The translations under genes and the position numbers were made by a program. The notes below the pieces were generated by a model. That model was not told the DNA's origin. It saw only the letters and a list, made by a program, of their open reading frames with translations, and did not search any database. From NCBI GenBank assembly GCA_944358305.1, contig CALVQK010000001.1, positions 163,103 to 227,102 on the forward strand: 64,000 nt of DNA, given 5' to 3'. Origin of the DNA: an uncultured Bacilli bacterium. GTDB taxonomy: Bacteria > Bacillota_I > Bacilli_A > RF39 > UBA660. This document shows, piece by piece, positions 2,865 through 62,598 of this stretch; the stretch's first letter is position 1; every line of letters starts with the position of its first letter.

Positions 2865-3872
2865 ATGATAGATAAATCATTTAAAGAAATATGCGATGGT
2901 ATTAAAAAAGGCGTTAAAGATACACAATTAGAAATTATGGTAAATGCTAATACTAATTTAGTTAATCTTTATTATAGAATAGGGAAAACTCTAGAAGAAA
3001 ATAGTAAGTGGGGTAATAAATTTATTGATACTGTTGCTTTCGAACTTAAAAATACATTTCCTACTTTAAAAGGATTTTCTATTCGTAATTTAAAGTATAT
3101 GAAAACATTTTATAATGAATATAAAGATGAAACTGAATTTGTGCAACTGGTTGCACAATTACCTTGGAAGCATAATATTACTTTATTCCAAAAAGTAAAA
3201 GATAAAAACATTCGTAAATGGTATATGGAAAAATGTTTAGAAGAAGGTTGGTCAAATAATATTTTAATCTATCAGATAGATGCTGATTTATATAAAAGAC
3301 AGGTAGAAAATAAAAAGCACAATAATTTCAAGATTACTTTAAAAGAAAATAGTGATCTTGCTAATAACATTATGAAAGAGCCTTATGTTTTTGATTTAAT
3401 AGAATTAACTGAAGATTATAAGGAAAGAGAATTAGAAAATAAAATGTTAGAACGTTTAAAAAATGTTTTATTAGAATTAGGTAGTGGTTTTTCTTTTGTT
3501 GGTAATCAATATAAAATTACTGTAGACGATGAAGATTTTTATATTGATTTGTTATTCTATCATATTAAATTAAAATGTTATATTGCCATTGAACTTAAAG
3601 TAGGAAAGTTCAAACCTGAATTTGGTAGCAAAATGGGATTTTATTTGACTGCTTTAGATGAACAAGTAAAAGATAATAATGATAATCCATCTATAGGTAT
3701 TATTTTATGTTCTAGTAAGAGCAATAAAATAGTAGATTATACCTTAAAATATATTAATAAACCACTAGGAGTTAGTGAATATAAAATATTTAATGAACTT
3801 CCTAATAACTTATTAAAAGATTTCCCAACGGAAGATGAATTAAATATCTTTATAGATTTAGATGAGGAGTGA
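2865..3872 (+). CDS. YhcG/DUF1016-family PD-(D/E)XK nuclease-like protein
   Basis: The N-terminal region matches the DUF1016 pattern (KWGNKFIDTVAFELKNTFPTLKGFSIRNLKYMKTFY). C-terminal PD-(D/E)XK-like core D..IAIELKVGKFKPE. RBS GGGGGAAG. Confidence 0.6.
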   Translation: MIDKSFKEICDGIKKGVKDTQLEIMVNANTNLVNLYYRIGKTLEENSKWGNKFIDTVAFELKNTFPTLKGFSIRNLKYMKTFYNEYKDETEFVQLVAQLPWKHNITLFQKVKDKNIRKWYMEKCLEEGWSNNILIYQIDADLYKRQVENKKHNNFKITLKENSDLANNIMKEPYVFDLIELTEDYKERELENKMLERLKNVLLELGSGFSFVGNQYKITVDDEDFYIDLLFYHIKLKCYIAIELKVGKFKPEFGSKMGFYLTALDEQVKDNNDNPSIGIILCSSKSNKIVDYTLKYINKPLGVSEYKIFNELPNNLLKDFPTEDELNIFIDLDEE

Positions 3873-6857: not shown

Positions 6858-7940
6858 ATGAAAGTAGTTATAACAGCAGGTGGTACCGGAGGACATATAT
6901 TTCCAGCTTTAGCCGTTATAGATAAGTTAAAAGAAAAAGATAAAAATGTGAAAATCTTATATATAGGCACTACTGATAGAATGGAAAAAGATATAATCCC
7001 TAAGACTGGAATACCCTATGTTGGTATTGAAATGAAAGGTTTAAATAGAAAAAATGTCTTTAAAAATATTGAGGTTATGAAGACATATTTTAGAGCATGT
7101 AAAAAAGCTAAAAACGAATTAGCTAAATTTAAACCTGATGTTGTTATCGGTTTTGGTGGTTATATAAGTGCCCCAGTTATATATTCAGCTTCTAAACTTA
7201 AAATAAAAACTATTATTCATGAACAAAATTCTATTCCTGGAGTTTCTAATAAATTCTTATCAAGATATGTAGATCGTGTTTTAGTTTCATTTAAAGAAAG
7301 TATAAAAGATTTTCCTAAAGATAAAACCATCTATACTGGTAATCCTCGCAGTGAGCAAATAAAAGATGTAAAAAAGATTAGTAAGACTTCTTTAGGCTTT
7401 AATAAAGATCTTCCTCTTGTTATAATAGTAATGGGTTCTCTTGGCTCTTTAACTATGACTAAAAAATTAAAAGAGATAATGCCTCTATTTAAAAATAAAA
7501 GCTATCAAGTTTTATTAATAACAGGTAAGAATTATTATGATGATTATAAAGACATAAAGCTTAGTAAAAATGTTAAAATAGTGCCATTTTTAGATAATCT
7601 AATAGGATATATGAAAGATGCTAGTTTAATTGTTACTAGAAGTGGTGCTAGTACTATCGCTGAAATTACAAGTATTGGCCTACCTGCTATTATGGTACCA
7701 AGTCCTTATGTTACTAATAATCATCAATATATAAATGCTAAATCACTAGAAAATGATAGTGCTTGCCTTATCTTAAAAGAAGAAGATTTTAATAAAGATA
7801 ATTTAATTAGTCTTGTAGATAAGCTAATTAATAATAAAGATAAATTAAATAGTATGCATGAAGCATTACTTAAAAGAAGTGTAACAGACAGTGCTACTCG
7901 TATTTACGAGGAAATAATAAAATTAGTAAGGGATGAATGA
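6858..7940 (+). CDS. murG: UDP-N-acetylglucosamine--N-acetylmuramyl-(pentapeptide) pyrophosphoryl-undecaprenol GlcNAc transferase MurG
   Basis: N-terminal GGTGGH(I/V)FPA motif and glycosyltransferase family 28 architecture. An alternative ATG lies at 6849. Confidence 0.85.
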   Translation: MKVVITAGGTGGHIFPALAVIDKLKEKDKNVKILYIGTTDRMEKDIIPKTGIPYVGIEMKGLNRKNVFKNIEVMKTYFRACKKAKNELAKFKPDVVIGFGGYISAPVIYSASKLKIKTIIHEQNSIPGVSNKFLSRYVDRVLVSFKESIKDFPKDKTIYTGNPRSEQIKDVKKISKTSLGFNKDLPLVIIVMGSLGSLTMTKKLKEIMPLFKNKSYQVLLITGKNYYDDYKDIKLSKNVKIVPFLDNLIGYMKDASLIVTRSGASTIAEITSIGLPAIMVPSPYVTNNHQYINAKSLENDSACLILKEEDFNKDNLISLVDKLINNKDKLNSMHEALLKRSVTDSATRIYEEIIKLVRDE

Positions 7941-8856: not shown

Positions 8857-9540
8857 ATGACTAAAGTTATCAAGAAGAAAAAATTAAGACTATTACCATT
8901 TTTAATATTTATTATAGTAATCGCTATAATAGTTTTTGTCTGTCTTTTTGTTCTTGATACTAAAGTAAAAAATATTATTATAACAGGAAATGAGGTCCTA
9001 AGTGATGATGAAATCATAGAATTAGCAGGACTTACAGATTATCCAAGTTTCTATAAGACTTTAAATAGTAAGATAGAAAATGGAATTAAAGAAAACCCAC
9101 TTATTAAAGATGTAAATATTGATAGAAGTTTTTATCACATTATTGAAATAAAAGTAGATGAATATGAAATATTATATAAAAGAGAAGATAATGGTAAATA
9201 TGTTTTAGAAAATAAAGATGAAATAACTCTTGATAGTGAAACTCCATACACGATACCAAGATTAATTAATGAAATACCAGATAAAAAATTAAATAGTTTT
9301 ATCAAGTATTATAAAAGAATAGATTTAAACATTAGAGAAAAAATAAGTGAAATAAAGTATGATCCTAATGATTATGATGAAGATAGATTCTTATTATATA
9401 TGGATGATGGTAATAGCGTTTATGTAACTATTACTAAGTTTGAAAGATTAAATTATTATAATGATGTCCTACCTCAATTAGATGGTAGAAAAGGAATACT
9501 TTATTTAGATTCAGGAAACCATTTTAGGATAATGGAATAA
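8857..9540 (+). CDS. divIB: cell division protein DivIB/FtsQ (POTRA domain)
   Basis: Basic N-terminus, single TM and a POTRA-like region. Conserved position after murG-murB. Confidence 0.6.
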   Translation: MTKVIKKKKLRLLPFLIFIIVIAIIVFVCLFVLDTKVKNIIITGNEVLSDDEIIELAGLTDYPSFYKTLNSKIENGIKENPLIKDVNIDRSFYHIIEIKVDEYEILYKREDNGKYVLENKDEITLDSETPYTIPRLINEIPDKKLNSFIKYYKRIDLNIREKISEIKYDPNDYDEDRFLLYMDDGNSVYVTITKFERLNYYNDVLPQLDGRKGILYLDSGNHFRIME

Positions 9541-9557
9541 TAGATAATAATGAATGT

Positions 9558-9597
9558 AAAATAACAATGGGACCAAGACTTATTGTTATTTTTTATT
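9558..9597 (+). terminator. rho-independent terminator after divIB
   Basis: AAAATAACAAT-N13-ATTGTTATTTT stem followed by a T-run. Confidence 0.6.
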
Positions 9598-9625
9598 TGA
9601 ACAATAGGACTCTATGTGTTAATAT
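9597..9625 (+). promoter_or_regulatory. sigma-70-type promoter for the surface-protein gene; duplicated at 60553-60581
   Basis: TTGAAC-17nt-TGtTAATAT (extended -10). Confidence 0.5.
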
Positions 9626-9700
9626 TATATTAGAAAAGGTAGTAACAAATAAGTAGAAATACAAAAGTTGGTACATACTAAAGATTAGGAGTGGAGTCTA

Positions 9701-11470
9701 ATGAAAAGATTATTACTAGAAACAAGCTTTAGTAAAATTTATATGATTTCAGTAATAGTAATAAGCTTACTTATAATAGGAGGCTATTTTTCATATGCTA
9801 TGTTTACAGTAAATAGAGAAAAGGGAAATGCTATAAGTATAGTAACAGGGAATTTAACTTATAAACTAGAGGTAGATGGAAGTGAAGGCAATACTTTAAC
9901 AGTACCACAAAACAGTAGTAGAGAATTTATAGTAACACTATCTAATCCTAATAATAGAAAAGCAAGATTTAACTTTTATTATTTAAATGATTTACCTAAT
10001 AATGTAGAAGCAGGATATATAATAGATTGTGAAACAAACACTTTACCAGAATCTGTTGGCGTAAACTTAGAAACAAGTGGAACAGCAGGTTCTAGTAATA
10101 TATATAAAATAATGGTAGAGAATAATTCTAGTAATGATATAACAATAGAGTTAGGAGTAAATGTAGGACTAGATTATAATGATTTAGAATTACCAAGTAA
10201 TGGACATATATTTAAAGAATATGAGAATGTTCCAAATGCTCCAGAGTTAGATGAAGGAATGATACCAGTAAGTTATGATGGATCTAACTGGGTAAAAGCA
10301 GAGTCTAATAATACAGATAATAGTTGGTATAACTATGATGAACAGATGTGGGCAAATGCTGTCACCGTAACAGAAGAAACAAGAGATATATATAAGAGTG
10401 CTGATGTAGGAACAACAATATCAATGGATGATATAGAGACAATGTGGGTATGGATACCAAGATATAGTTACTCTATAGGAAGCGAAGATGGTACAAATTA
10501 CTATGGAAAAAAAGGATGCTATTTAGAAACAGATCCTACTCAAGCTTTACCAGGAGAAATAGATGTAAGATTTGTATCAACTTCTATAAAAGATAGAGGA
10601 ACAGCTAAATATGTAACAACTACAGGTTCAAGAGAGTATTATACTCCAGATGCCTTTACATTTGGAGATGAAGAACTATCAGGAATCTGGGTAGGAAAAT
10701 TTGAGACAAGTAGTAATTCAAGTTCTCCTGACGGAGGAGGAAATACAACAGAATTAGATCCGATGATAAAACCTAATACTCCAGATTGGCGCTGGATTAG
10801 TGTAAGTAATGCCTTTAATGTATCTTTAAAAATGAATGATGAAGGAAATAGGTATGGAATAGAAAGTACAACCGATACTCATATGATGAAGAATAGTGAA
10901 TGGGCAATAGTAGCCTATCTATCCCAAAGTAAATATGGTAAGTTAGGTAATACTAATTTCACAGGTGACAATAAAGAGATATATCAAAATAAATCAGATC
11001 AATATATAACAGGATGCAGTTATGGTGCTCCAAGTGATGATAGTACGGATTATGGATGTCAATATACCTATGACATCGATATAAACGGAACAGGAGCAAG
11101 TACAACAGGAAATATCTATGGAATTTATGATATGAGTGGAGGAGCTTGGGAGTATGTAATGGGTAATTACAATGATATAGTAGGTGATAGTAATTTTGTT
11201 TCTATGCCAGAATCAAAGTATTATGATAAATATACAAATAGTGATATTTTTTCTTCATGTAATGGTCAGTTATGCTTGAGCCATAATTTAGGCGAAACAG
11301 CAAATTGGTATAATAGTGCAAAAGGCCATGTTACAGAAACATATCCTTGGATGATATGTGGTGGTTATTATTCACAAATTGATTCTAGTTTATTTAAAGT
11401 AGACGCGTCAAATAATTATGGCAGTGCCCATTCACTTGTATCTTTCCGATTAGTAGCAACAACAAGTTAA
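9701..11470 (+). CDS. N-terminally anchored surface protein with C-terminal FGE-sulfatase (formylglycine-generating-enzyme)-like domain, paralogue A
   Basis: Single N-terminal TM/signal anchor. The C-terminal half carries FGE-family-like motifs NSEWAIVAYLS and GIYDMSGGAWEYVMGNY (compare GxYDMxGNVWEW). RBS AGGAGTGGAG. Confidence 0.6.
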   Translation: MKRLLLETSFSKIYMISVIVISLLIIGGYFSYAMFTVNREKGNAISIVTGNLTYKLEVDGSEGNTLTVPQNSSREFIVTLSNPNNRKARFNFYYLNDLPNNVEAGYIIDCETNTLPESVGVNLETSGTAGSSNIYKIMVENNSSNDITIELGVNVGLDYNDLELPSNGHIFKEYENVPNAPELDEGMIPVSYDGSNWVKAESNNTDNSWYNYDEQMWANAVTVTEETRDIYKSADVGTTISMDDIETMWVWIPRYSYSIGSEDGTNYYGKKGCYLETDPTQALPGEIDVRFVSTSIKDRGTAKYVTTTGSREYYTPDAFTFGDEELSGIWVGKFETSSNSSSPDGGGNTTELDPMIKPNTPDWRWISVSNAFNVSLKMNDEGNRYGIESTTDTHMMKNSEWAIVAYLSQSKYGKLGNTNFTGDNKEIYQNKSDQYITGCSYGAPSDDSTDYGCQYTYDIDINGTGASTTGNIYGIYDMSGGAWEYVMGNYNDIVGDSNFVSMPESKYYDKYTNSDIFSSCNGQLCLSHNLGETANWYNSAKGHVTETYPWMICGGYYSQIDSSLFKVDASNNYGSAHSLVSFRLVATTS

Positions 11471-11540
11471 TTGAGTAAAAAAAGAAAACAGTAAATAAAA
11501 AATTATTAGTACTGTGGTATAAGATATTTATTCATAATAA

Positions 11541-11572
11541 AAGGGAAATGAGTTTTTATTCATTTCCTTTTG
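11541..11572. terminator. bidirectional rho-independent terminator between convergent genes
   Basis: AAGGGAAATGA-loop-TCATTTCCTT hairpin. The minus-strand stop codon lies in the loop. Confidence 0.55.
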
Positions 11573-11924
11573 TCATTATTCTTAATTTATCATAACTTTC
11601 TAATCCTTTAGAACTTCCTTCTGGAAGTAGATAAATATAATAAGCTTTAAGTCTTGGCCTAACAAACTTCTCTGTTTTAATAGATGGGTATATTGCTAAG
11701 ATATTATTCTCTTTATCAGTAACTACAATGTCAAGTTTTTGACAAACAAAATAAGTGTTGATCATTTTCTTTTTAGGATAACATAATCCTTCTTTAATAG
11801 GATAAAGATAAAATCTATATCCTTTAATTCTATCCTTAAACTTAGTTACCATTTTAAATTTTATTTTATTCTTACCATTTTTTATATATCTTTCCACGAA
11901 AATCACCTGTATATATAATAACAT
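11556..11924 (-). CDS. small hypothetical protein, possibly DUF192-like
   Basis: MINTYFVCQKLDIVVTDKENNIL resembles the DUF192/COG1430 core. Start is uncertain (ATG 11924 or GTG 11897). Confidence 0.35.
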   Translation of the reverse strand: MLLYIQVIFVERYIKNGKNKIKFKMVTKFKDRIKGYRFYLYPIKEGLCYPKKKMINTYFVCQKLDIVVTDKENNILAIYPSIKTEKFVRPRLKAYYIYLLPEGSSKGLESYDKLRIMTKGNE

Positions 11925-12005: not shown

Positions 12006-13394
12006 ATGAATAATAATCAAAATAGCAGTAATTTATCTAATATGTATGGAACAAATAATGGAGTAGTTCATAATCAAGAGAGTAATAATATTTCAAATCA
12101 AACTAGTAATATGAATACGCAATCAACCGATATAAATAATACTGGAATTGTAGATAGTACGAATAGTTTAAATAATAGTAATAATCAAACTATAAATCAA
12201 AATAATAATATCCTAAAAGATCAGTCAAATATTTTAGGAGAAAATCTTTCTATTAATAGTGAGAGTATTAATCAAAATCTGAATGACAATAGTTCTAACA
12301 TAAATAATGTAAATAATTATTCATCTTCACCCTCAGTTTCTGCTAATATTAATCAAGAACCTTTAAGTGAACAAAAGAAAAGTGAAATAATTGATCATTA
12401 TATCAATCCAGGGCCAGGCAGTAATGAAACAGTAAACAATAATACCGCTTCTAATGATGAAGAATACTTAAAAGCTTATATAGGAAAAAATTATGAGAAA
12501 ATTATGAACAGTAATATTTCTATACCTGCTTTCTTCTTTGCTGAACTTTACTGGTTTTATCGAAAGATGTTCTTATTTGGACTTATTCTAGGTATAATAC
12601 GTATCCTTATTTTAAATAGTCCTTTAGGTCTTTTTGCACTCATTGTAAATGTTATTTGTATTTTTATTACTAATAAAGTCTACTTAATAGATGCTAAATA
12701 TAAGATAAGTAAAATAAAAAGTAAAATGTATGGTAAAAACAGCCAAGAAATACTAAATGCTTGTGCTTCTAAAGGTGGTACAAGTATTGGTCTAACAGTT
12801 GGAGGAATAGCAATAGAAATAGTAGGTATTATCATTTTTCTAATTGTAAGTTTAATAACAGGCATGGCCTCTATCTTTAATGTTGACTTTTTAAATAATT
12901 TGTTCTCTAATGTAAATATAAATATTATTCCTAACTCTTCTAGTGGAGAAGAGTCTAATAAAACTTTTGATGGAACTTTATACTTTGATGTTAATACTAA
13001 TATAACAGATAAAGTAGCAGTAAATGTTCCTAGCGTCTTTGAAGATGAAAGTATGGATTCTCATGAATATGCTTATACTTATAACAGTAATCCTAGTGGT
13101 GTCTTTGGAGATTGTAGTTTTTCTTTAAGTATTGTTTCTAATTATACTAATGCTGAAAACTTAGCGACTGGTATGGCTGAGTATTATAATAATACTACTA
13201 ATATAATTAATACAAATGTAAATGGTATAAATTGGTATGGTCTAAACTATAGTTCAGTTTATAATACTACCGCTTACCTTATGGAACTTGATAATAAAGT
13301 CTATTTATATAAATTTGAAATTGGTGATGACTCAGATCAAGCTGCCTGCAATACATATAATGAACAAATTTTCAATTCAATTAGTCTTAAGTAA
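12006..13394 (+). CDS. hypothetical membrane protein with N/S/Q-rich N-terminal low-complexity region
   Basis: An N-rich disordered region of about 150 aa, then a TM cluster, then a Cys-containing C-terminal domain. Confidence 0.45.
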   Translation: MNNNQNSSNLSNMYGTNNGVVHNQESNNISNQTSNMNTQSTDINNTGIVDSTNSLNNSNNQTINQNNNILKDQSNILGENLSINSESINQNLNDNSSNINNVNNYSSSPSVSANINQEPLSEQKKSEIIDHYINPGPGSNETVNNNTASNDEEYLKAYIGKNYEKIMNSNISIPAFFFAELYWFYRKMFLFGLILGIIRILILNSPLGLFALIVNVICIFITNKVYLIDAKYKISKIKSKMYGKNSQEILNACASKGGTSIGLTVGGIAIEIVGIIIFLIVSLITGMASIFNVDFLNNLFSNVNINIIPNSSSGEESNKTFDGTLYFDVNTNITDKVAVNVPSVFEDESMDSHEYAYTYNSNPSGVFGDCSFSLSIVSNYTNAENLATGMAEYYNNTTNIINTNVNGINWYGLNYSSVYNTTAYLMELDNKVYLYKFEIGDDSDQAACNTYNEQIFNSISLK

Positions 13395-19545: not shown

Positions 19546-19645
19546 TTTCTATAATTGATTTATCGGATTCTATGTGGTAACATTTTATTAGATAATAGAA
19601 TGGCAAGACTAAGATATAACCATTCTAACTAATAAGGAGTGTAAC

Positions 19646-21499
19646 ATGGAGAAAGATAATAAAAAGAAAAAAATAATTACTTTAGTAATAAGTATATTAA
19701 TAATAATAATATTGATTCTTGCAATAAGTTATGCTTACTTTTCTACTAGATTAAATGGATCAGATCAAATAGTAAAAGTAGGAGAGTTAGAACTAGTATT
19801 AAATGAAACAAGTGAAGGAATAACTTTGGATAATGCTATAGGATTAAGTGATGAAGATGGTATGAATTTAACACCATCAACATTTGAATTAAGAAATAAT
19901 GGAGATAAGGCCGTTGATTATACTATTTATTTAGATGACAATACAATTGATGATGCAGATACCAGAATAGACGATATGTATTTAAAATACAATCTAAATA
20001 AAAATGGTGCAGATAGTGGTGCGACTTTACTTACTAGAACAGGATCTAATCCAAATAGAGTGCTAGACTCTGGAACTATAGAAGGTGGAGTGACTAATAC
20101 ATATAGTTTAAACTTATGGATAACAGATGAAGTAGATGGAAACTATTCAGGCCAAGTATTTAGTGGAGTCTTAAGAGTAGAGGTTAGTCAAGAAAGAGCT
20201 ATGGAAGCAAGTACAGTATTGCTTGATAATATACCAGAAGATAATCTTTATGATGATGGAATAGATACCTTTATAACAGGCGAAGATCCAAATAATTATA
20301 TATGGTACTCAGGAAAGTTATGGAGAGCGGTGAGTGTTAATAATGAAACGAAGACAGTTAAATTAGTAACACAATGGAGTATAAGTTCTATTCCTTATTC
20401 AAATGGCAGTTCTAAATTTACAGGAAGTTATATGGAAGAATGGTTAAATGATACAAGTGTAGATGGTTTTTTAGGTAATTTAAGAGATCATGAGAACTTT
20501 ATAGTAACAGATGCAAAGTGGGATGCAACAATGGATAATCGAAGTCTAGGTAATATAACAAGACCAAATGGTACAACTGTAGTGACAGATGCTGTAGGTC
20601 TACTTAATATGTATGAATACCAGACAAGTTATACTGGAACTACCTATAGCAATGGATATTTAAATAACGAACTATGGTGGTGGACTTTGACTCCAAGCGA
20701 TAATAGTAGTATTAATGTTATATTTGAACCAGGGAATGTAGGACATAATGAGCCCGCTAGTTCTTTTGGTGTTCGTCCTTCAGTGATACTAAAATCAAGT
20801 ATAAATATAGTTGGTGGTAATGGAAGTGAATATGACCCTTATCGTTTAGATGGCGATAATGACAATAATTTGTCTGGCACATTACTTAATACAAGGTATA
20901 GTGGGGAATACATTAGTTTTGGACTGGGCGAGAATAATTTGTATAGAATAGTAAGCCATGAAACAGAAAAACTAACTAAGATAACAAGTGCTGAAGCTTT
21001 AAAAAAATCTGATGGGTTTGTACAAACAGCTTTTGGCAATGATATAACATTTTCCAAAAATAATGCAATAGGTAGTTTTTTAAATGGTGAATATTTAAAT
21101 AACTATGTTGATAAAAAGCAAAGTGATATGATAGAAGACAGCACTATATGGTATCTTGGAGCAGTAGGAGAAGGTACGTCATATAAATTAGCTAAATATA
21201 CAGATGTAAGTGGAAAAACATTAACTTCAAATAGTACAAGTACCAAAGTAGGGTTGTTAAGATTAGGTGAGTTGCTAGCGGGCCAAACTGACAAATATAT
21301 TAGTAATGCCCATTATTGGCTTTTGACACCATATGATAGTTCTAGAGTTCGTGACATTGGTAATAGTAGTGATTCTTATTTTCTTCCTGTTGGTTGGGCA
21401 GATTATGGCATCAAACCTGCATTAAACCTAAAATCAAATGTTATTATAACCTCAGGTGATGGCACAAAAGAAAATCCATTTGAAATTGCATTGCAATAG
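19646..21499 (+). CDS. N-terminally anchored surface protein, paralogue sharing the N-terminal module with 9701/44730/60656; two C-terminal RPxxNL..GxG..(D/N)P(Y/F) modules
   Basis: A TM anchor followed by SYAYFS...VGELELVLNE...EGITL, alignable to SYAMFT...TGNLTYKLEV...EGNTL of the other paralogues. Two C-terminal modules end GVRPSVILKS..GGNGSEYDPYRL and GIKPALNLKS..SGDGTKENPFEI. Confidence 0.55.
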   Translation: MEKDNKKKKIITLVISILIIIILILAISYAYFSTRLNGSDQIVKVGELELVLNETSEGITLDNAIGLSDEDGMNLTPSTFELRNNGDKAVDYTIYLDDNTIDDADTRIDDMYLKYNLNKNGADSGATLLTRTGSNPNRVLDSGTIEGGVTNTYSLNLWITDEVDGNYSGQVFSGVLRVEVSQERAMEASTVLLDNIPEDNLYDDGIDTFITGEDPNNYIWYSGKLWRAVSVNNETKTVKLVTQWSISSIPYSNGSSKFTGSYMEEWLNDTSVDGFLGNLRDHENFIVTDAKWDATMDNRSLGNITRPNGTTVVTDAVGLLNMYEYQTSYTGTTYSNGYLNNELWWWTLTPSDNSSINVIFEPGNVGHNEPASSFGVRPSVILKSSINIVGGNGSEYDPYRLDGDNDNNLSGTLLNTRYSGEYISFGLGENNLYRIVSHETEKLTKITSAEALKKSDGFVQTAFGNDITFSKNNAIGSFLNGEYLNNYVDKKQSDMIEDSTIWYLGAVGEGTSYKLAKYTDVSGKTLTSNSTSTKVGLLRLGELLAGQTDKYISNAHYWLLTPYDSSRVRDIGNSSDSYFLPVGWADYGIKPALNLKSNVIITSGDGTKENPFEIALQ

Positions 21500-23464: not shown

Positions 23465-24493
23465 ATGTATACAGAAGAAAATCAAAGAGGCAGATTTCCA
23501 TTAAGAGATATTTTATTAAAAGCTATTATAGTTATAATTTTTATAATTTTAATTATTTTTATCATTACAAGACTTACTACACCAAATAATAGTAATAACA
23601 GTAATAGCGTAAATTCTAATTATGATCAAGTATTTAGTGAAAATTTAAAAGCAATGGAAGATGCTGCCTATAGTTATTATACAGAAGAAAGATTACCAAA
23701 AGAAGTTGGAGATATTAATGAATTAACTCTAAGAGAAATGATAAATTCTAATCTTTTAGAAGCATTTACTGATGCAGATGGTAATTCATGTGATGTTAAT
23801 GCTAGTTATATCAGATTAACAAAAAATGAAGAAGATTACACTTTAAGAGTAAATCTTAAATGTAATGAAAAAGAAGATTATTCCCTTACAAAGGTAGGAG
23901 AATATGACTATTGTGAACATGATATATGTAAAAGAGATAGTAGTAAAGAAAACGAAGAAACAGCTAAAGAAGAAGATAACGAAGTAACTGATGAAGTAGA
24001 TATTACAGAAGAAACAGAGACTACCACTACTCCAGCTACTAATAACAGTAATACTAATAATAATACTGGAACTACTAATAACAGTACATCTAATAATAAT
24101 AGCAATACTGGAGGTAGTAGTGGTTCTAGTGGTAATTCAAATAATACATCTAATAATACACCGCAAGTAATAACAATGTATGAATATAGAAAAGTAACAG
24201 ATCCTGTTTTATCAGGATGGAGTGCTTGGAGTAGTTGGGCTTATAATACAGAAAGATATAGTGCTATTAAATGTGGTACTACTGATGCCAATTGTTTAAG
24301 AGAAGTTCAATTATATTCACGAAGAGAACAAGTAGGAACAAGTAATGGTAGACCAGTTTATGGTACAGTTAATTACTATAGTTATAGAACAAGAACCTTA
24401 ATTAGTAGTGGTTCTACTGATACAAAATGGAGTACTTATAATGACCAAAGCTTATTAAGCCAAGGTTATACTTATACAGGAAATACCAGATAG
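23465..24493 (+). CDS. hypothetical N-anchored secreted protein (N/S/T-rich linker, Cys-containing C-terminal domain)
   Basis: N-terminal TM, low-complexity T/N/S region and a C-terminal W/Y-rich domain. Confidence 0.4.
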   Translation: MYTEENQRGRFPLRDILLKAIIVIIFIILIIFIITRLTTPNNSNNSNSVNSNYDQVFSENLKAMEDAAYSYYTEERLPKEVGDINELTLREMINSNLLEAFTDADGNSCDVNASYIRLTKNEEDYTLRVNLKCNEKEDYSLTKVGEYDYCEHDICKRDSSKENEETAKEEDNEVTDEVDITEETETTTTPATNNSNTNNNTGTTNNSTSNNNSNTGGSSGSSGNSNNTSNNTPQVITMYEYRKVTDPVLSGWSAWSSWAYNTERYSAIKCGTTDANCLREVQLYSRREQVGTSNGRPVYGTVNYYSYRTRTLISSGSTDTKWSTYNDQSLLSQGYTYTGNTR

Positions 24494-24503
24494 GAGTGAT
24501 AAT

Positions 24504-26162
24504 ATGGGTAAAATAAGAGGACTTTATCGTTTTAAAACTTCAGACATAAATGATCATGCTAAATTAGCATATTGTTATGTTGAAGAAAATGAGTATGGTA
24601 ACTTAGAATATCATTTTACAGAGGATTTATCAATAATAAGAAAAATCTTTGTAAGATATGCTGAGGATAACGGTTATACCAAAGCAGATTTAAATAATAT
24701 TCAAGATCATAAGCACTTTGATTTGAACTGTTCATCTCCTAAAAATGTTTTTGATAAAATAAGAGAAGCGAACAGCGATAAGAATTTATCTATTGAAGAT
24801 TTTGCTAGTAGTTTTGTTCATTCTACAGTTGATCCTCTTAATCTAAATCCTTCTGAATCTGCAGAAGCAGAAGAAGAGTTAGAATTAGATATAGATGATG
24901 CTGAGGACTTAGATGATGATTTTGATGATGAGGAAGATTTAGATGAAAAGGACAAATTCCCAACTCGTGTCCGCAAATTCTTTAGTAATAAATTAACTAC
25001 TTTGAAAAATAAATGGAATAGTTTAAATCCAAGAACAAAAGTTGGCTTTATTGGCGCTGGTATGGCTGCTTTAAGTGTTGCTATTGCTATCGGAGCAAGT
25101 GTAGCTGTTAATAAATTTGGTGGCCCAACCGCTACAAATAGTAGAGTCGCTTCTGTAACAGATGATAATGATAAAGATAAAAACAAAGATCAAAATGATA
25201 AAAAAGATGAACAAGAAACTAAAGATGAAGATCAAAAAGAGAAAGAAAATGAAGCTAGTAAACAAAATACAGATGGTTCTAGCCAAACATCTAATGATAA
25301 CTCTTACAGCCAAGCCTCATCTAATGGCAACTCTAATTCTGGCTCAGGTTCATCATCAAATGGTGGTGGTTCATCAAGTGGTGGAACTTCTGGAGGCGGA
25401 TCAACTGGTTCTACAACAACTCCAGGAAGTATAAATGAAGATGTTCCAGTTTTCCAAAACCCTGACGAGTCACTAGATAATTCTAATAATGGTGGTTCAT
25501 CTGATGGAGAGACAGAAGATCCTTATGAAAATGTTAATGAAGGAGAACAAGATACCAATATAGGAGAAGGTGAACAGCCTGATCAAGATGAAGATTATAG
25601 TGAAGAGATTGATGTTCCACCTTCAACTGAAGATAAAGATAATGTCGATAAAGATGATGTTGATTTCAACGATGAACTTACAGGAAATGAAGATGCTGTA
25701 GATGACGATGATCTAAGCTATGATATGGATGTACCATTAGATCAAGGTGATTCTGAAGATTATGAAGTAGTTACTCCAGCACCACTTCCAGATCCTAATG
25801 ATACAGCAGTAGCTGGAGATGGTGATTATAATACAACAGAAGATGAATTAAATAATGTAACAGAAGAAGAAGTTAATACTACAACACCTACTACACCAGA
25901 TCAAAGTCAAACAGAAGACTATAGCGAGGAAATAGATGTTGTTCCAGTAACTCAAGAATTAGTAGAACCAGAAGGACAATATGTAGATCAGGATGCGGAG
26001 TTAGCTGCAAGACAAGAAGCCAATGCTAATGCTGTAGAACAAGCTGTTAATGAAATGGCTGAAGGTAATGATGTTAGCTTAATATTTAATGATCAAACAG
26101 GTACCGTAAGTATCCAGCAAAATACAACTACTAACACACAAACAAATAGTATGACAAAATAG
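24504..26162 (+). CDS. hypothetical single-pass membrane protein with acidic and S/G/N/D-rich low-complexity regions
   Basis: A roughly 100-aa globular N-terminal domain, an acidic stretch, a TM (VGFIGAGMAALSVAIAIGASVAV) and a long D/E/S/G/N-rich exterior region. Confidence 0.4.
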   Translation: MGKIRGLYRFKTSDINDHAKLAYCYVEENEYGNLEYHFTEDLSIIRKIFVRYAEDNGYTKADLNNIQDHKHFDLNCSSPKNVFDKIREANSDKNLSIEDFASSFVHSTVDPLNLNPSESAEAEEELELDIDDAEDLDDDFDDEEDLDEKDKFPTRVRKFFSNKLTTLKNKWNSLNPRTKVGFIGAGMAALSVAIAIGASVAVNKFGGPTATNSRVASVTDDNDKDKNKDQNDKKDEQETKDEDQKEKENEASKQNTDGSSQTSNDNSYSQASSNGNSNSGSGSSSNGGGSSSGGTSGGGSTGSTTTPGSINEDVPVFQNPDESLDNSNNGGSSDGETEDPYENVNEGEQDTNIGEGEQPDQDEDYSEEIDVPPSTEDKDNVDKDDVDFNDELTGNEDAVDDDDLSYDMDVPLDQGDSEDYEVVTPAPLPDPNDTAVAGDGDYNTTEDELNNVTEEEVNTTTPTTPDQSQTEDYSEEIDVVPVTQELVEPEGQYVDQDAELAARQEANANAVEQAVNEMAEGNDVSLIFNDQTGTVSIQQNTTTNTQTNSMTK

Positions 26163-28274: not shown

Positions 28275-29258
28275 TTGTGGCTTATAGTTGTTTATATTGG
28301 TTATATAATTTTTCAACCATTATTAATTAAATATAATCATAAGCTTACAAATAAGAAAACTATAATTATCTCTTTCTTCTTTTTCTTATGTACATATGTA
28401 CAATTGATTTTTTGTCTTCATACAACCTTTGATTTAATTATTAATGCCATTCTTTTTTCATGTTATGCTGGAACATACTGGAATTTAAGACATAATCTTG
28501 AATTTAAAACTTTAAATGAAAATAGAATAGGTAGGAAAGTAGGAATACTCATAATTATTACGCAAATAGCAGATATTACCGCAGGTATCATCTCTGCTTT
28601 AATACTAGATAATTTTAGTATTATACCTTTATTTATAATTTCAACTATTTTAATGATCATATCTATTATCTATATTTTTTTAGTTAAAGAAAAAAGAAGA
28701 AAGAAAACTAAAGATAATATATTAAAATACTTTAAGACAGTTCCAAAAACAACATTATTTCATATTTTTCTCAAGGAAGCCTCAACCGTCATGAGTCAAC
28801 TTTTTTCTCTTTATCTTTTCATCTATGTATCAAACACTTATAGTTTTGCAGGCCTTGCCAACTTTTTCTTAGGCTTAGCAGGAATTATATTTACTTACTT
28901 CTTATCAAAGAAAATAGATGAAAATAGAGAAAAATACTTACTACTAAGTGTTGTTTTAATATGTACAATTTATTTATTAAAAATAAATATAACTTCAGAA
29001 CTTGTTTTAATTATTGTCTTTATAGAAGGTTTTATAAAACAGTTTTATAAAGTTGTTACTAGTAATAACTATTATTTACTAGGCCATAAGTTAGATAAAA
29101 TTACCTATATTTGTGGCAATGAATTATTTGTTAATATTTCAAGAATAATTATTATTTTAATTGGATTCTTCTTAACAGGAAGCTTACCTAAATTAATGTA
29201 CTTTTGTATAGGTCTATTAATTTTATCAGGATTTGTACCTTTTAAAACTAAAAAATAA
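28275..29258 (+). CDS. polytopic membrane protein, tandem paralogue 1 (N-terminus disrupted by frameshift)
   Basis: About 10 TM segments and about 80% identity to the downstream paralogue, with identical blocks (KYFKTVPKTTLFHIFLKEASTVMS; SNTYSFAGLANFFLGLAGIIFTYFLSKKIDE). Confidence 0.5.
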   Translation: MWLIVVYIGYIIFQPLLIKYNHKLTNKKTIIISFFFFLCTYVQLIFCLHTTFDLIINAILFSCYAGTYWNLRHNLEFKTLNENRIGRKVGILIIITQIADITAGIISALILDNFSIIPLFIISTILMIISIIYIFLVKEKRRKKTKDNILKYFKTVPKTTLFHIFLKEASTVMSQLFSLYLFIYVSNTYSFAGLANFFLGLAGIIFTYFLSKKIDENREKYLLLSVVLICTIYLLKINITSELVLIIVFIEGFIKQFYKVVTSNNYYLLGHKLDKITYICGNELFVNISRIIIILIGFFLTGSLPKLMYFCIGLLILSGFVPFKTKK

Positions 29259-29278
29259 TCAAGATAGGAATGATAAAA

Positions 29279-30397
29279 ATGGATAATATAATTTCAAAGA
29301 ACATAATATATTCCAAATTTTTTATATTGTTATCAGCTTTAGCCAAGAATTTATTAGGCACATTTAATGCTATTTATTTGTATAAGCAAGGTTTTTCTTT
29401 AACTTTAGTAGTTTCATGGCAACTAACAGTATATATATGTTACATGATTTTTCAACCATTTATACATAGGTACCTTTATAAGTTCAGTAATAAATTCTTA
29501 ATGGTAATATCCTTCCTATTTTTCTTAAGTGCCTATTTAAAATTAATCTTTGATCTTCATACAACTTTTGATTTAATAGTTAATGCTATCCTTTTTGGTT
29601 TATATGCCAATATCTATTGGAATGTTAGACACAGTCTTGAGTTTAAGACTTTAAATGATAAAAAAATAGGTAGAAAAGTAGGAATAATTTTAATAATTTC
29701 CCAAATATCCGAGATATTAGCATCACTTATCTCTGCTTTTATTCTTGATAACTTTAGTATTATTCCACTATTTATTACCTCTAGTATCTTAATGCTTATA
29801 TCTTTAATTTATGTCTTTATGTTGAAAGAAAAAAGAAGAAAGCCACCTAAGGAATCTATATTTAAGTATTTTAAAACAGTTCCTAAGACAACACTGTTTC
29901 ATATTTTCTTAAAAGAAGCCTCAACTGTTATGAGTCATTTCTTTTCTTTATACTTGTTCCTTTATGTTTCAAATACATATTCTTTTGCAGGACTTGCTAA
30001 CTTTTTCTTAGGCTTAGCAGGAATAATATTTACTTACTTCTTATCAAAGAAAATAGATGAAAAAAGAGAAAGTTATTTACTATTCTGCACAGTATTAATT
30101 TGTACTGTTTATTTACTAAAAATAAATATAACTTCTGAATTTGTTCTAATAGTAGTATTTATGGAAGGCTTTATCAAACAATTCTTTAATGTTGTCTCTA
30201 ATAATAATTATTATTTATTAGGTCATAACTTAGAAAAAACTACTTATATTTGTGGTTATGAATTATTCATAAACTTTGCTAGAGTAGTGATTCTTTTTGT
30301 AGGTTTCTTCTTAACTGGAAGTTTACCTAAACTTATGTATTTTTGCATTGGCTTACTAATTTTATCTGGTTTTCTTCCTTTCAAAATAAAAAAATAA
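29279..30397 (+). CDS. polytopic membrane protein, tandem paralogue 2 (intact); possible transporter
   Basis: See the 28275 ORF. An alternative ATG lies at 29270. Confidence 0.55.
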   Translation: MDNIISKNIIYSKFFILLSALAKNLLGTFNAIYLYKQGFSLTLVVSWQLTVYICYMIFQPFIHRYLYKFSNKFLMVISFLFFLSAYLKLIFDLHTTFDLIVNAILFGLYANIYWNVRHSLEFKTLNDKKIGRKVGIILIISQISEILASLISAFILDNFSIIPLFITSSILMLISLIYVFMLKEKRRKPPKESIFKYFKTVPKTTLFHIFLKEASTVMSHFFSLYLFLYVSNTYSFAGLANFFLGLAGIIFTYFLSKKIDEKRESYLLFCTVLICTVYLLKINITSEFVLIVVFMEGFIKQFFNVVSNNNYYLLGHNLEKTTYICGYELFINFARVVILFVGFFLTGSLPKLMYFCIGLLILSGFLPFKIKK

Positions 30398-44729: not shown

Positions 44730-46334
44730 ATGAGATTTAATATCAAAGAATTTATGAAAGCAGATATATCTAAGTTTTATATTTTAATAGCAGGAACTAT
44801 TTGTCTATTAGTATTAGGAGGTTATTTTTCTTACGCTATGTTTACAGTATCAAAAGAACAAGATAATGCTGTAAGTATTATAACTGGTAATTTAGAATAT
44901 GATTTACAAGTAGATGGAGAAGAAGGTAATACTTTAACAGTACCTGCTAATTCAACGAATGACTTTATTGTTACTTTAAGTAATCCCAATAATAGAGAAG
45001 CAAGATTTAATTTCTATTATGAAGATACATTACCTGATGATGTAACAGTTGGTTATGTCCCTGCTAATGGTGTAAATGCTGTTGCAGAAGCCAAAGGTAT
45101 AAACTTATCATCTGATGGTTCAAGTGGTTCTAGTAATACCTATAGAATCCAAGTGAAAAATGATACAGATAGTGAAATAAAAGTTACCTTAGGAGCAGAA
45201 GTAGGATTAGATTATAATGATTTAACATTGCCAGAAAATACTCAAACAGTTGATGAAATAGAACTTTCTCCTGCTGCCAAGACAATTCTTTCTGCTAATG
45301 CGATACAGGATGATTCTAAAAATATGTTTAACTATGTAAACGATAATGCTTTATATGCTTCTATTAATGATGATAGTACAAACTCTACTCCTAATTCTGA
45401 GTCTACAGTAAGCGGGTTATATGCTATTGAAGATGATAATGGTATCAGTTATTATTTTAGGGGTAATGTAAATAATAATAATGTTCAGTTTGGCCAATAT
45501 GATAATGATTACTATATTTACCAAAGTGGTACTAATTATTATCAGAGTGAAGAAAGTTGCATAGAAGCTGGAAACAGCAACTGTACGAGTGTAAAATTAG
45601 CATCTAAGGGCGATAAAATGTACTGGAAGATAGTAAGAATAAATGGTGATGGAAGTTTAAGATTAATCTATAACGGAATAAGTCCGACTCCTAATGGTAG
45701 TGATTTAGCTAATTCTTATGCAATAGGTGTTGCTCCATACAATTTAACTAGTAATGATCCAAAATATACTGGCTATACCTACGATAATGGAACAAATAGT
45801 TTTATTAAAAGAGAAATAGATACATGGTATAATAATACATTAGGAATTAATACTAATTATGATAGTAAAGTTTTAAGCAATATATTTTGTAGTGATAGTA
45901 GTGGTTACAAGTTAGGAACAGATTATGGTCTAGATGATACTAACTATAATGTCTTTGCTAGTTTTAATAGATTAAGACAAGATTTAAGTAATTATTCTAA
46001 ACCAAATGCTCCAACATTAAAATGTCAAGGGACAGAAGAAACTTATGGTGGATCATATAATTTAAAAGCTGCTTTAATAACAATAGATGAACTAAATATA
46101 GCAGGACTTGGAAGCGAAGCGACTACTTATTTAAGTCAAGATAGTTCCCCACTATATTATTGGACTATGACACCTGCTGCTTTTAATAACAACAATGCAT
46201 TCACTTGGCTTGACAGTTTAGATAATGTTAATGTTACTAATAATTACGCTATACGTCCTGTTATTAATTTATCATTAGAAAATGCTTTTGCAAGTGGCAG
46301 TGGTACTACTGATGATCCTTATATTGTATCATAG
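44730..46334 (+). CDS. N-terminally anchored surface protein, paralogue with shared N-terminal module and one C-terminal RPxxNL..GxG..DPY module
   Basis: GGYFSYAMFTVSKEQDNAVSIITGNLEYDLQVDGEEGNTLTVP...ARFNFYYED aligns to the 9701/60656 N-terminal region. C-terminus AIRPVINLSLENAFASGSGTTDDPYIVS. Confidence 0.55.
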   Translation: MRFNIKEFMKADISKFYILIAGTICLLVLGGYFSYAMFTVSKEQDNAVSIITGNLEYDLQVDGEEGNTLTVPANSTNDFIVTLSNPNNREARFNFYYEDTLPDDVTVGYVPANGVNAVAEAKGINLSSDGSSGSSNTYRIQVKNDTDSEIKVTLGAEVGLDYNDLTLPENTQTVDEIELSPAAKTILSANAIQDDSKNMFNYVNDNALYASINDDSTNSTPNSESTVSGLYAIEDDNGISYYFRGNVNNNNVQFGQYDNDYYIYQSGTNYYQSEESCIEAGNSNCTSVKLASKGDKMYWKIVRINGDGSLRLIYNGISPTPNGSDLANSYAIGVAPYNLTSNDPKYTGYTYDNGTNSFIKREIDTWYNNTLGINTNYDSKVLSNIFCSDSSGYKLGTDYGLDDTNYNVFASFNRLRQDLSNYSKPNAPTLKCQGTEETYGGSYNLKAALITIDELNIAGLGSEATTYLSQDSSPLYYWTMTPAAFNNNNAFTWLDSLDNVNVTNNYAIRPVINLSLENAFASGSGTTDDPYIVS

Positions 46335-60447: not shown

Positions 60448-60462
60448 TATTAATAACATTCA

Positions 60463-62598
60463 GATTCAGGAAACCATTTTAGGATAATGGAATAATAGAT
60501 AATAATGAATGTAAAATAACAATAAGACTAAAAGTTATTGTTATTTTTTATTTGAACAATAGGACTCTATGTGTTAATATTATATTAGAAAAGGTAGTAA
60601 CAAATAAGTAGAAATACAAAAGTTAGTACATACTAAAGATTAGGAGTGGAGTCTAATGAAAAGATTATTACTAGAAACAAGCTTCAGTAAAATTTATATG
60701 ATCTCTGTAATAGTAATAAGCTTACTTATAATAGGAGGCTATTTTTCATATGCTATGTTTACAGTAAATAGGGAGCAGAGTAATGCAATAAGTATTATTA
60801 CAGGGAACTTAACTTATAAACTAGAAGTAGATGAAAGTGAAGGTAATACTTTAACAGTTCCACAAAACAGTAGTAGAGAATTTATAGTAACACTATCTAA
60901 TCCTAATAATAGAAAAGCAAGATTTAACTTTTATTATTTAAATGATTTACCTAATAATGTAGAAGCAGGCTATATTGTAGATTGTGAAACAAATACTTTA
61001 CCAGAATCTGTTGGCGTAAACTTAGAAACAAGTGGCACAGCAGGATCTAGTAATATATATAAAATAATGGTAGAGAATAATTCTAGTAATGATGTAACAA
61101 TAGAGTTAGGAGTAAATGTAGGGCTTGACTATAATGATTTAGAATTACCAAGTAATGGTCATATATTTAAAGAATATGAGAATGTTCCAAATGCTCCAGA
61201 GTTAGATGAAGGAATGATACCAGTAAGTTATGATGGATCTAACTGGGTAAAAGCAGAGTCTAATAATACAGATAATAGTTGGTATAACTATGATGAACAG
61301 ATGTGGGCAAATGCTGTCACCGTAACAGAAGAAACAAGAGATATATATAAGAGTGCTGATGTAGGAACAACAATATCAATGGATGATATAGAGACAATGT
61401 GGGTATGGATACCAAGATATAGTTACTCTATAGGAAGCGAAGATGGAACAAATTACTATGGAAAGAAAGGATGCTATTTAGAAACAGATCCTACTCAAGC
61501 TTTACCAGGAGAAATAGATGTAAGATTTGTAGATACTAATATAAAAGATAGAGGAACAGCCAAGTATGTAACAACAAGTGGAGCAAGAGAGTATTATACC
61601 CCAGATGCCTTTACATTTGGTAGTGTTGAGCTTAGTGGAATATGGGTAGGAAAGTTTGAGACAAGTAGTTCTAATCCAAGTGTAACAGCAGGAGGAGGCA
61701 ATACAACAGAGTTAGATGCCATGATCAAACCAAATGTGGCAAGTTGGAGAGATATAAATGTAAGTAATGCCTTTAATGTAAGTTTAAAGATGAATAATAA
61801 TGGAAATAGATATGGAATAGAGAGTACAACAGATACTCATATGATGAAGAATAGTGAATGGGCTACAGTTGCCTATTTATCACAATCAAAATATGGAAAG
61901 TTAGGTAATACTAACTTTACTGGGGCGGATAAAGAGATATATCAAAATAAATCAGATCTTTTTATAACAGGATGCAGTTATGGCAGTCCAAGTAACGGGA
62001 ATACAGATTATGGTTGCCAATATCAATATAATATAGAAATAAATGGAACAGGGGCAAGTACAACAGGAAATATCTATGGAATTTATGATATGAGTGGTGG
62101 TGCTCATGAATATACAATGGCAAATTATAATGATTTAATTGCAGATAGTGGTTTTTCTTCTATGCCTGACTCAAAATATTATGATAAATATACAACTGAT
62201 AACATGTTAACAGCTTGTAGTGGAAATGAATGTTTGAGCCATGCTTTATACGAGACTAATAATTGGTATAGTGATTATCGTGGTTTAGTAAGAGAACAAT
62301 ACCCATGGCAATTACGTGGAGGAATTTATAATTATAGTATTAAAGCGGGAATTTTTAATTTTGAAATTAGTAATAGTGCTGTTGGGGGTAATACTATAAA
62401 TGATGCTTTCCGTTTAGTAGCTACAACAAGTTAAGTGAGTAAAAAAGAAAAAATTAGTATTGTATAAGATATTTATTCATAATAAAAGGAAATGAGTTTT
62501 ATTCATTTCCTTTTGTCATTATTCTTAATTTATCATAACTTTCTAATCCTTTAGAGCTTCCATCTGGAAGCAGATAAATATAATAAACTTTAAGTCTT
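60463..62598. repeat. segmental duplication, copy B (inserted between rpsO and pnp)
   Basis: Collinear with 9507-11655. Includes a 34-nt relic of the divIB 3' end and a truncated relic of the convergent small gene. Confidence 0.9.
60656..62434 (+). CDS. N-terminally anchored surface protein with C-terminal FGE-sulfatase-like domain, paralogue B (duplicate of 9701-11470)
   Basis: First ~300 aa nearly identical to paralogue A. The C-terminal FGE-like half is roughly 75% identical, including WEY -> HEY within the GIYDMSGGA(W/H)EY motif. Confidence 0.6.
   Translation: MKRLLLETSFSKIYMISVIVISLLIIGGYFSYAMFTVNREQSNAISIITGNLTYKLEVDESEGNTLTVPQNSSREFIVTLSNPNNRKARFNFYYLNDLPNNVEAGYIVDCETNTLPESVGVNLETSGTAGSSNIYKIMVENNSSNDVTIELGVNVGLDYNDLELPSNGHIFKEYENVPNAPELDEGMIPVSYDGSNWVKAESNNTDNSWYNYDEQMWANAVTVTEETRDIYKSADVGTTISMDDIETMWVWIPRYSYSIGSEDGTNYYGKKGCYLETDPTQALPGEIDVRFVDTNIKDRGTAKYVTTSGAREYYTPDAFTFGSVELSGIWVGKFETSSSNPSVTAGGGNTTELDAMIKPNVASWRDINVSNAFNVSLKMNNNGNRYGIESTTDTHMMKNSEWATVAYLSQSKYGKLGNTNFTGADKEIYQNKSDLFITGCSYGSPSNGNTDYGCQYQYNIEINGTGASTTGNIYGIYDMSGGAHEYTMANYNDLIADSGFSSMPDSKYYDKYTTDNMLTACSGNECLSHALYETNNWYSDYRGLVREQYPWQLRGGIYNYSIKAGIFNFEISNSAVGGNTINDAFRLVATTS

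Follow-up and report, generated by a model that had tools for sequence, protein, structure and literature searches.

The 64-kb stretch of DNA analysed here (64,000 nucleotides of contig CALVQK010000001.1 from an uncultured Bacilli bacterium, called the window below, with coordinates given as window positions unless a locus name precedes them) carries four related genes whose products are designated P1 to P4. Open reading frames (ORFs) begin and end exactly where an earlier note, made from the sequence alone, had placed these genes, and all of them are on the forward strand:

9701-11470, forward strand: P1, 589 amino acids (aa)
19646-21499, forward strand: P2, 617 aa
44730-46334, forward strand: P3, 534 aa
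60656-62434, forward strand: P4, 592 aa

The GC content of the window is 25-33%. Genes resembling murG, murB and divIB are located just upstream of P1 and the window has further housekeeping genes, which indicates that the host is a walled bacterium. The closest named homologues are those of Candidatus Onthousia, which is known from metagenome-assembled genomes (MAGs) of the chicken gut, and a scan of GTDB genomes with an alignment of the P1 family gave 77 distinct loci from an Onthousia-like lineage, with at least 13 P1-type genes in one MAG and at least 3 in a closed 1.52-Mb genome. P1 to P4 appear to be members of a very large family in small-genome, low-GC gut Bacilli (Candidatus Onthousia and its relatives). 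It is probable that they are paralogous exported proteins built from a signal peptide, an immunoglobulin (Ig)-like N-terminal module (N-module) and heads with a lectin fold, and that they serve as variable binding proteins and not as enzymes. Their most likely role is that of adhesins or receptors, for which we infer the binding function, the ligands and display at the surface.

Each of the four proteins has a basic N-terminus that leads into a hydrophobic segment and then the motif S-Y-A-(M/Y)-F, a combination found in no other ORF of the window. The following segments were delimited from the sequence:

9701..9799, forward strand: signal peptide or transmembrane (TM) segment of P1, residues 1-33, ending in S-Y-A, a putative signal peptidase I site
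19646..19735, forward strand: signal peptide or TM segment of P2, residues 1-30, ending in S-Y-A
44730..44837, forward strand: signal peptide or TM segment of P3, residues 1-36, ending in S-Y-A
60656..60754, forward strand: signal peptide or TM segment of P4, residues 1-33

The earlier note had described the four proteins as N-anchored. The hydrophobic N-terminal segment is indeed present, but the anchoring is doubtful in view of the features of a cleavable signal peptide that are seen across the family. Statistics on the putative site were taken from 141 representatives with no more than 50% mutual identity, in which the Ala at position -1 is fixed by construction. Position -3 is occupied by S, T, A or G in 141/141 of them, position -2 by Y or F in 140/141, and position -5 by Gly in 69%; counted from Met1 to the Ala, the median length is 30 residues. 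The pattern is that of a textbook signal-peptidase-I site, and a LepB-type signal peptidase I, the sole one in ~1 Mb of related loci, is encoded in a related closed genome. Because the site is conserved and the related genome has such a peptidase, we infer that the segment is rather likely to be a cleaved Sec-type signal peptide, ending in the family-wide S/T-Y/F-Ala site, and not a permanent anchor.

A less likely arrangement is that of an uncleaved signal anchor, with P1 to P4 as type II membrane proteins tethered to the surface and the N-module as their stalk; it would alter the localisation only and leave the nature of the heads unaffected. Neither LPXTG, a lipobox nor any other retention signal is found in P1 to P4, so that a cleaved protein would have no obvious means of staying on the cell. 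The uncharged h-region reaches 20 residues in some representatives, and the ~20 residues that follow S-Y-A are modelled at low confidence, both of which would suit an anchor. However, the median h-region is 17 residues, the small-residue rule at -3 and -1 is kept (the Ala that places the site being present in some 141 of 147 highly divergent representatives) together with the helix-breaking Gly at -5, and a pure anchor offers no cause for conserving the site. The motif also matches the processed site of TasA/camelysin-type proteins, with positions 2-93 of the Peptidase_M73 profile aligned.

The signal peptide is followed in each protein by the N-module:

9800..10234, forward strand: N-module of P1, residues 34-178 (AlphaFold2 model, hhalign between subtypes, profile search)
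19736..20191, forward strand: N-module of P2, a divergent subtype, residues 31-182 (hidden Markov model (HMM), hhalign to the P1 type)
44838..45272, forward strand: N-module of P3, of the P1 type, residues 37-181 (BLASTP to P1, HMM)
60755..61189, forward strand: N-module of P4 (P1/P4 identity, HMM)

In a six-frame translation of the window an HMM of the N-module matches P1 to P4 and nothing else, the match to P2 scoring 188 bits. P1 and P3 are similar only over residues ~3-176 (BLASTP, E 5e-54), and no BLASTP match is obtained between P2 and P1. The family profiles of the P2 type and the P1 type can be aligned (hhalign probability 99.6%, E 1.3e-23), and the alignment persists over 135 columns when the TM segment and the SYA motif are left out (99.0%, E 3e-18). 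Since the profile alignment survives this removal and the HMM finds exactly P1 to P4, the N-terminal module common to all four proteins is considered real. A conserved module of this kind had been proposed in the earlier note and is supported by both the HMM and hhalign, for P2 at the profile level only; the sequence motifs quoted there are all present in the proteins, and the opposite case, in which the N-terminal segments are unrelated to one another, is contradicted by the second hhalign result.

The AlphaFold2 model of the N-module has a mean predicted local distance difference test (pLDDT) score of 84.8 and 10 strands, with low confidence over the first ~20 residues after SYA, and predicts an Ig-like beta-sandwich of ~150 residues. 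No match to PDB sequences was obtained with the N-module profile even at E <= 10, or with the full-family profile at E <= 1. The module would act as a common stalk or as an export-proximal module.

A search of 1.84 billion representative proteins with the N-module profile, from which the TM segment had been removed, yielded 4,484 clusters, formed at 50% identity, with E <= 1e-3; 1,832 reach E <= 1e-10. In the best 150 of the 4,484 clusters the match almost always starts near residue 20-55. Protein length varies between 114 and 2,133 aa, and stand-alone modules of ~180-220 aa are numerous. When 91 N-module representatives were scanned with Pfam/NCBIfam, the C-terminal partners were BspA-type leucine-rich repeats (LRR_5) in 12, DUF285/PARCEL in 7, Bact_surface_Ig-like in 6 and DUF6273 in 6, as well as Laminin_G_3, ricin lectin, GDSL lipase, metallophosphatase and other domains. 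LRR_5, DUF285/PARCEL, Bact_surface_Ig-like, Laminin_G_3 and ricin are partners of the kind seen in adhesins, and others are of the kind seen in secreted enzymes. Among P1 and P3 homologues, identical types of C-terminal domain are carried by clearly distinct N-module subtypes (SYAMFT, SYALLT and AFAYLT). The diversity of the partners and the presence of the same heads on several subtypes lend good support to module shuffling, as had been suggested for these genes from the window, and unrelated C-termini are joined to the N-module in thousands of proteins. The family, and above all the N-module, appears to be uncharacterised, the module being absent from Pfam. Stand-alone proteins of ~190-196 aa that consist of a signal peptide and an N-module are encoded at L001:4418-4999, L040:8617-9204 and other related loci. 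They share genomes with the long forms and may represent the N-module in a minimal or structural form.

A relationship between the N-module and the TasA/camelysin family has to be considered. The motif around the putative cleavage site, [ST]-[YFW]-A|[WYM]-F-[TS]...G-T-L-x-L, resembles the TasA and CalY precursors, which likewise have small-aromatic-Ala at the end of the signal peptide and, after it, aromatic-F-[TS] and a G-T-L-x-L strand. The N-module was aligned by hhalign in register with TasA 23-81. The Peptidase_M73 model (PF12389, gathering score 22.5 bits) matches residues 1-105 of family representatives, so that it aligns to the first ~100 residues of some members; two of ten pass the gathering score (25.0 and 23.0 bits), the matches of these two cover the N-terminal half of the model only, and the N-module consensus remains below it at 20.1 bits. 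P1 to P4 themselves stay below every threshold, with no match to Peptidase_M73 at E <= 1. The SipW-cognate signal model TIGR04088 gives 10.5-12.3 bits against a cut-off of 19. No SipW gene is present in the window, where no S26 motif is found, or in the ~1 Mb of related loci, and TasA was not returned by fold searches with the N-module. Most family members also have large C-terminal domains, which TasA is without. The N-module is therefore best described as distantly related in sequence to camelysin/TasA proteins in their N-terminal half, with no membership in that family.

TasA fibres assemble by donor-strand exchange (PMC9674648). The cleaved N-module could polymerise in the manner of TasA or of archaeal bundling pili, with the N-terminal strand of one subunit inserted into the next and the fibres carrying variable heads. 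The likeness of the site motif and the alignment in register with TasA, the two representatives above the Peptidase_M73 gathering score, and the many stand-alone modules of a TasA/camelysin-like size point in this direction, but with the differences just given polymerisation has a slim chance of being correct.

For P1 and P4 the earlier note had described C-terminal domains with motifs like those of the formylglycine-generating enzyme (FGE)/SUMF1 family. The relevant features, including the segments equivalent to the variable region (VR) of diversity-generating retroelement (DGR) targets, are:

10226..10645, forward strand: middle region of P1, residues 176-315 (PNAPELD...MWVWIPRYSY...), with many invariant columns in the family alignment
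10646..11467, forward strand: C-terminal head of P1, residues 316-589, a putative FGE-subtype C-type-lectin fold with large inserts
11357..11455, forward strand: VR-equivalent segment of P1, CGGYYSQIDSSLFKVDASNNYGSAHSLVSFRLV, residues 553-585 (CGG...FRLV), placed by alignment with the translated VR and template repeat of related locus L074
61601..62431, forward strand: C-terminal head of P4, FGE-subtype and lectin-like
62315-62419, forward strand: VR-equivalent segment of P4, RGGIYNYSIKAGIFNFEISNSAVGGNTINDAFRLV, residues 554-588

The middle region of P1 is modelled by AlphaFold2 with moderate confidence for roughly its first 80 residues only. The motifs of the P1 head occur in the order GIWVGKFETS, ISVSNAFNVSLKM, NSEWAIVAYLSQ, GIYDMSGGAWEY, CGGYY and FRLV, of which the first two, together with RGG/FRLV, are presumed to be FGE-family signatures on the basis of the Pfam consensus. 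FGE-sulfatase (PF03781, a 255-position model with a gathering score of 23.3 bits) is the sole recurrent Pfam match of the family, being found in 30 of 61 members at E <= 0.1 (best E 1.9e-4). None of the scores reported for the 61 members is above the cut-off, and the family consensus scores 20.1 bits.

A profile of the head (its last ~205 residues) gave PDB sequence matches at E 0.4-1.5 only. The motifs can be aligned over 94 residues with 5VF4, the variable protein TaqVP of a Thermus aquaticus DGR, the aligned motifs being HxMxNxEWAxVA ... GIxDxxGxxWEYV. DGR variable proteins have a C-type-lectin fold of the FGE subtype, in which the VR occupies the extreme C-terminus and the last strand is invariant, and in them the fold serves purely as a binding scaffold (PMC6328139). 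The catalytic residues of human FGE, Ser333, Cys336 and Cys341, lie in the segment that is equivalent to the VR (PMC6328139). No Cys pair follows RGG in residues 553-585 of P1 or 554-588 of P4, and these segments are not conserved between the two paralogues. A conserved C-x4-C is located upstream of RGG in residues 520-525 of P1. From the spacing in human FGE, this pair presumably belongs to an insert. The sulfatase signature C/S-x-P-x-R is absent from every six-frame ORF of the 64-kb window.

An enzymatic role for P1 and P4 is very unlikely, because the VR-equivalent segment has no Cys pair and is the least conserved part, and because the window has no sulfatase signature. The earlier note had regarded an extracytoplasmic FGE in a Gram-positive as unusual, and that reading is not supported, with scores below the Pfam cut-off, no Cys pair and a DGR variable protein as a close homologue. 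That P1 and P4 are genuine extracytoplasmic FGEs or related oxidases that mature secreted sulfatases is hard to credit: the similarity is weak and is centred on the GNVWEW-type motif (GIYDMSGGAWEY), where the sub-threshold matches fall, and the fold subtype is probably the same as in FGE/SUMF1, but the segment that holds the triad in the human enzyme is here the hypervariable RGG...FRLV, the homologues are DGR targets, and the massive paralogy, with at least 13 paralogues in one MAG, is at odds with the role of an essential enzyme. From the sub-threshold FGE scores, the missing Cys pair and the homologue among DGR targets, the most fitting reading of the P1/P4 head is that of a binding domain with a C-type-lectin fold of the FGE subtype.

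P2 and P3 have heads of a second type:

20243..20842, forward strand: first DUF6273 module of P2, ~residues 200-399, ending GVRPSVILKS...GNGSEYDPY (Pfam)
20843..21496, forward strand: second DUF6273 module of P2, ~residues 400-617, ending GIKPALNLKS...GDGTKENPF (Pfam, hhalign)
45282..46331, forward strand: C-terminal region of P3, residues 185-534, with no Pfam match
46062-46331, forward strand: DUF6273-like end of P3, last ~90 residues, AIRPVINL...GSGTTDDPY (hhalign to the P2 repeats)

P2 matches DUF6273 (PF19789, gathering score 23.5) in two stretches with 32.8 bits, and its family consensus reaches 49.8 bits. No Pfam match was obtained for P3 or for its family consensus. The last ~90 residues of P3 align with both P2 repeats (BLASTP E 7e-4; hhalign 96%, E 5e-9), and HMMs of the P2-type and P3-type C-termini match the same ORFs in 18 cases in the related loci. 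Because P3 is without a Pfam match and its tail aligns only by way of the P2 repeats, membership in DUF6273 can be assigned to P2 alone and P3 is considered a divergent relative.

The shared terminal motif that had been noticed in these two proteins is present, in P2 in two modules and in P3 in one. A C-type-lectin fold has been ascribed to DUF6273 in the literature, along with a role as a DGR target domain whose VR is C-terminal (PMC10743442, PMC11792537). The four C-termini do differ in their Pfam content, as stated in the earlier note, but with this reported fold they are less different than they appear. All heads would then belong to the C-type-lectin superfold, with the FGE subtype in P1 and P4, two DUF6273-subtype domains in P2 and one in P3. 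The two modules of P2 above the threshold and the aligned tail of P3 are features in common with DUF6273 proteins such as the phage 'tentaclins' and the DGR targets of Faecalibacterium prophages. In contrast to the phage proteins, P2 and P3 are chromosomal, cellular and equipped with a signal peptide, and the DUF6273 modules are C-terminal and in tandem, and not N-terminal with Ig domains behind them. No evidence of a DGR was found for P2 or P3, and none was looked for.

The connection of the FGE-type heads with DGRs comes from related genomes. The gene at L074:4914-6794 encodes an N-module and an FGE-like head and its product is 47% identical to P1 over the whole length, including the extreme C-terminus (E 3e-174). 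The 3' 112 nt of this gene recur downstream at 7639-7750 (95/112 identical, no gaps), and 17/17 of the differences between the VR and this template repeat (TR) fall at TR adenines. The confinement of the differences to adenines is the hallmark of DGR mutagenic homing. Genes for bAvd (76.8 bits) and a reverse transcriptase (RT; RVT_1, 66.5 bits) are found just downstream. The closed genome has the same cassette at L072, with an RT that is 88% identical. A template-like copy at L072:12282-12391 matches the 3' end of a paralogue ~780 kb away (L073), with 15/16 differences at TR adenines, which indicates that the DGR of the closed genome targets this paralogue in trans. Five or six TR/VR-like copies, ~330 bp apart, lie between the target gene and bAvd/RT in both cassettes (L072:11145-13057 and L074:6670-9074). 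The arrangement may represent a multi-template DGR acting in trans on scattered paralogues. A GC-rich end resembling the IMH (initiation of mutagenic homing) sequence, TCGTTCCGCCTCGTGATG (<=3 mismatches), together with a GC-rich tail, is found in 18 of 88 complete-head genes of the related loci. In related genomes a DGR rewrites the RGG...FRLV segment, and the last ~35 residues of an FGE-type head would form a ligand-contacting, fast-evolving surface, the ligands being host, dietary or microbial.

P1 and P4 share several features with the DGR variable proteins TvpA of Treponema denticola, TaqVP of Thermus aquaticus and Mtd of Bordetella phage BPP-1. The head is C-terminal, the motifs EWAxVA, GxxDMxGxxWEY, RGG and the FR-L/V last strand occur in the same order, and the variable segment of the family is at the extreme C-terminus. 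Unlike TvpA and TaqVP, P1 and P4 have a signal peptide and an Ig-like N-module and carry much larger inserts in the domain.

The VR-equivalent segment is also where P1 and P4 differ most. The two proteins are 85% identical over their full length and identity drops to 12/32 in the last block. For codons 541-589 the nonsynonymous divergence (dN) is 0.59 and the synonymous divergence (dS) 1.16; in the N-terminal half dN is 0.0-0.016 and dS 0.03-0.23, with a dS of 0.03 for codons 176-290. This mosaic of synonymous divergence, from 0.03 to 1.16, indicates that recombination or gene conversion probably took place on top of duplication. The duplicated unit extends beyond the genes, with 198 bp upstream (9503-9700 and 60458-60655, 96% identical) and 193 bp downstream (11490-11682 and 62438-62624, 89.6% identical). 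The tips of P1 and P4 would owe their divergence to duplication combined with mosaic recombination, and no signature of a retroelement is seen in the window.

Several results weigh against reading the heads as variable binding domains of the DGR type. The FGE-sulfatase scores of P1 and P4 themselves are sub-threshold (17.0 and 15.9 bits) and cover 40-65 residues, at profile positions 168-226. The AlphaFold2 model of the C-terminal 414 residues of P1 (176-589, built with 61 homologues that are 57-80% identical) has a pLDDT of 44, too low to be usable, and Foldseek with this model returned noise only. The E value of the match to TaqVP, 1.5, is non-significant. In P1 and P4 no IMH-like sequence is present and the GC content of the tail is 0.34 and 0.32, respectively, so that the segment is AT-rich. 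The window holds no TR for their 3' ends, the sole second copy of each being the other gene, and neither the RT nor the Avd of L074 has a homologue there. P1 and P4 are therefore linked to DGRs by homology alone.

The setting and the expression signals of the four genes bear on their origin:

9613..9628, forward strand: extended -10-like promoter motif TATGTGTTAATAT upstream of P1, from the alignment of the four upstream regions, a consensus match only
19571-19586: extended -10-like motif of P2, from the same upstream alignment
44613-44628: extended -10-like motif of P3, likewise
60568-60583: extended -10-like motif of P4, likewise
11540..11571, forward strand: terminator-like hairpin after P1, from a terminator scan, inside the 193-bp downstream stretch common to P4

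The genes stand singly amid housekeeping genes (divIB/murB, efp, trpS and rpsO). No conserved gene neighbourhood was found in relatives, where the neighbours are also housekeeping genes. The extended -10-like motif, TGTGnTAnnAT, is located 75-115 nt upstream of each gene; a search with this pattern returned 5 occurrences, against 2.2 expected by chance, and 4 of the 5 precede P1 to P4. A terminator-like hairpin was detected behind P1 only. Each of the four genes would form a unit by itself, with a promoter-like motif of its own. That the four proteins are prophage-derived receptor-binding or tail-fibre proteins is scarcely believable, for although C-type-lectin domains of the DUF6273 and FGE types are common in phage receptor-binding proteins and phage DGRs (PMC10743442, PMC11792537), P1 to P4 occur one by one among housekeeping genes, each with a promoter-like motif and a signal peptide and with no adjacent phage structural genes, and the neighbours in related genomes are housekeeping genes as well.

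The window is rich in uncharacterised envelope proteins besides P1 to P4. The gene at 40440-42641 (forward strand) encodes a 733-aa protein with a prepilin-type N-terminus, KGFTLVELL (N_methyl, 29.1 bits), followed by the bacterial Ig-like domains Big_13 and Big_3_3; its appearance is that of a large surface protein of the type IV pilin-like or pseudopilin kind. Two adjacent genes at 28275-29258 and 29270-30397 (forward strand) encode clearly paralogous polytopic membrane proteins of 327 and 375 aa with long identical stretches, and are a tandem duplication. The products of 12006-13394, 23465-24493 and 24504-26162 (forward strand) are predicted membrane or secreted proteins with long low-complexity regions rich in Asn, Ser, Thr and Asp, and the first two of them have no match in Pfam. 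Just downstream of P3, 46613-47602 (forward strand) encodes a 329-aa protein whose C-terminus has a weak PADLOC match to a 'putative invertase' (26.4 bits), the only database support for a product that we take to resemble an Rpn-type recombination-promoting nuclease or a transposase. Among membrane-protein genes, 2865-3872 (forward strand) encodes a 335-aa protein with a very strong match (418 bits) to PDC-S02, a candidate defence family of PADLOC, and a further match to a PD-(D/E)xK nuclease model. A 49-nt tandem repeat at 35648-35743 (forward strand; 2.0 copies, 97% match) is located ~120 nt upstream of a 155-aa ORF at 35866-36333; the idea that this ORF is a ToxN/AbiQ-like type III toxin was supported by neither Pfam nor PADLOC.

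The reading of P1 to P4 as exported binding proteins removes the apparent anomaly of an extracellular FGE in a Gram-positive, since the domain in question would be a lectin-fold binding head and not an enzyme. A poorly known gut lineage with small genomes spends many genes on one modular family, with four in this window alone in addition to the P1-type genes counted in related genomes, and the family is a candidate for a major determinant of attachment to host, food or other microbes. It also offers a natural system in which DGR-driven and paralogy-driven diversification can be compared in one scaffold. A wider proposal, which has a small chance of being right, is that the N-module is an undescribed, widespread export-and-assembly module of gut Bacilli, of TasA/camelysin descent, and that a single multi-TR DGR services in trans the FGE-type heads of many scattered paralogues in this lineage. 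After cleavage at S-Y-A the N-module would polymerise or dock on the cell and display interchangeable heads. If this is true, a 1.5-Mb genome would hold a programmable repertoire of surface proteins.

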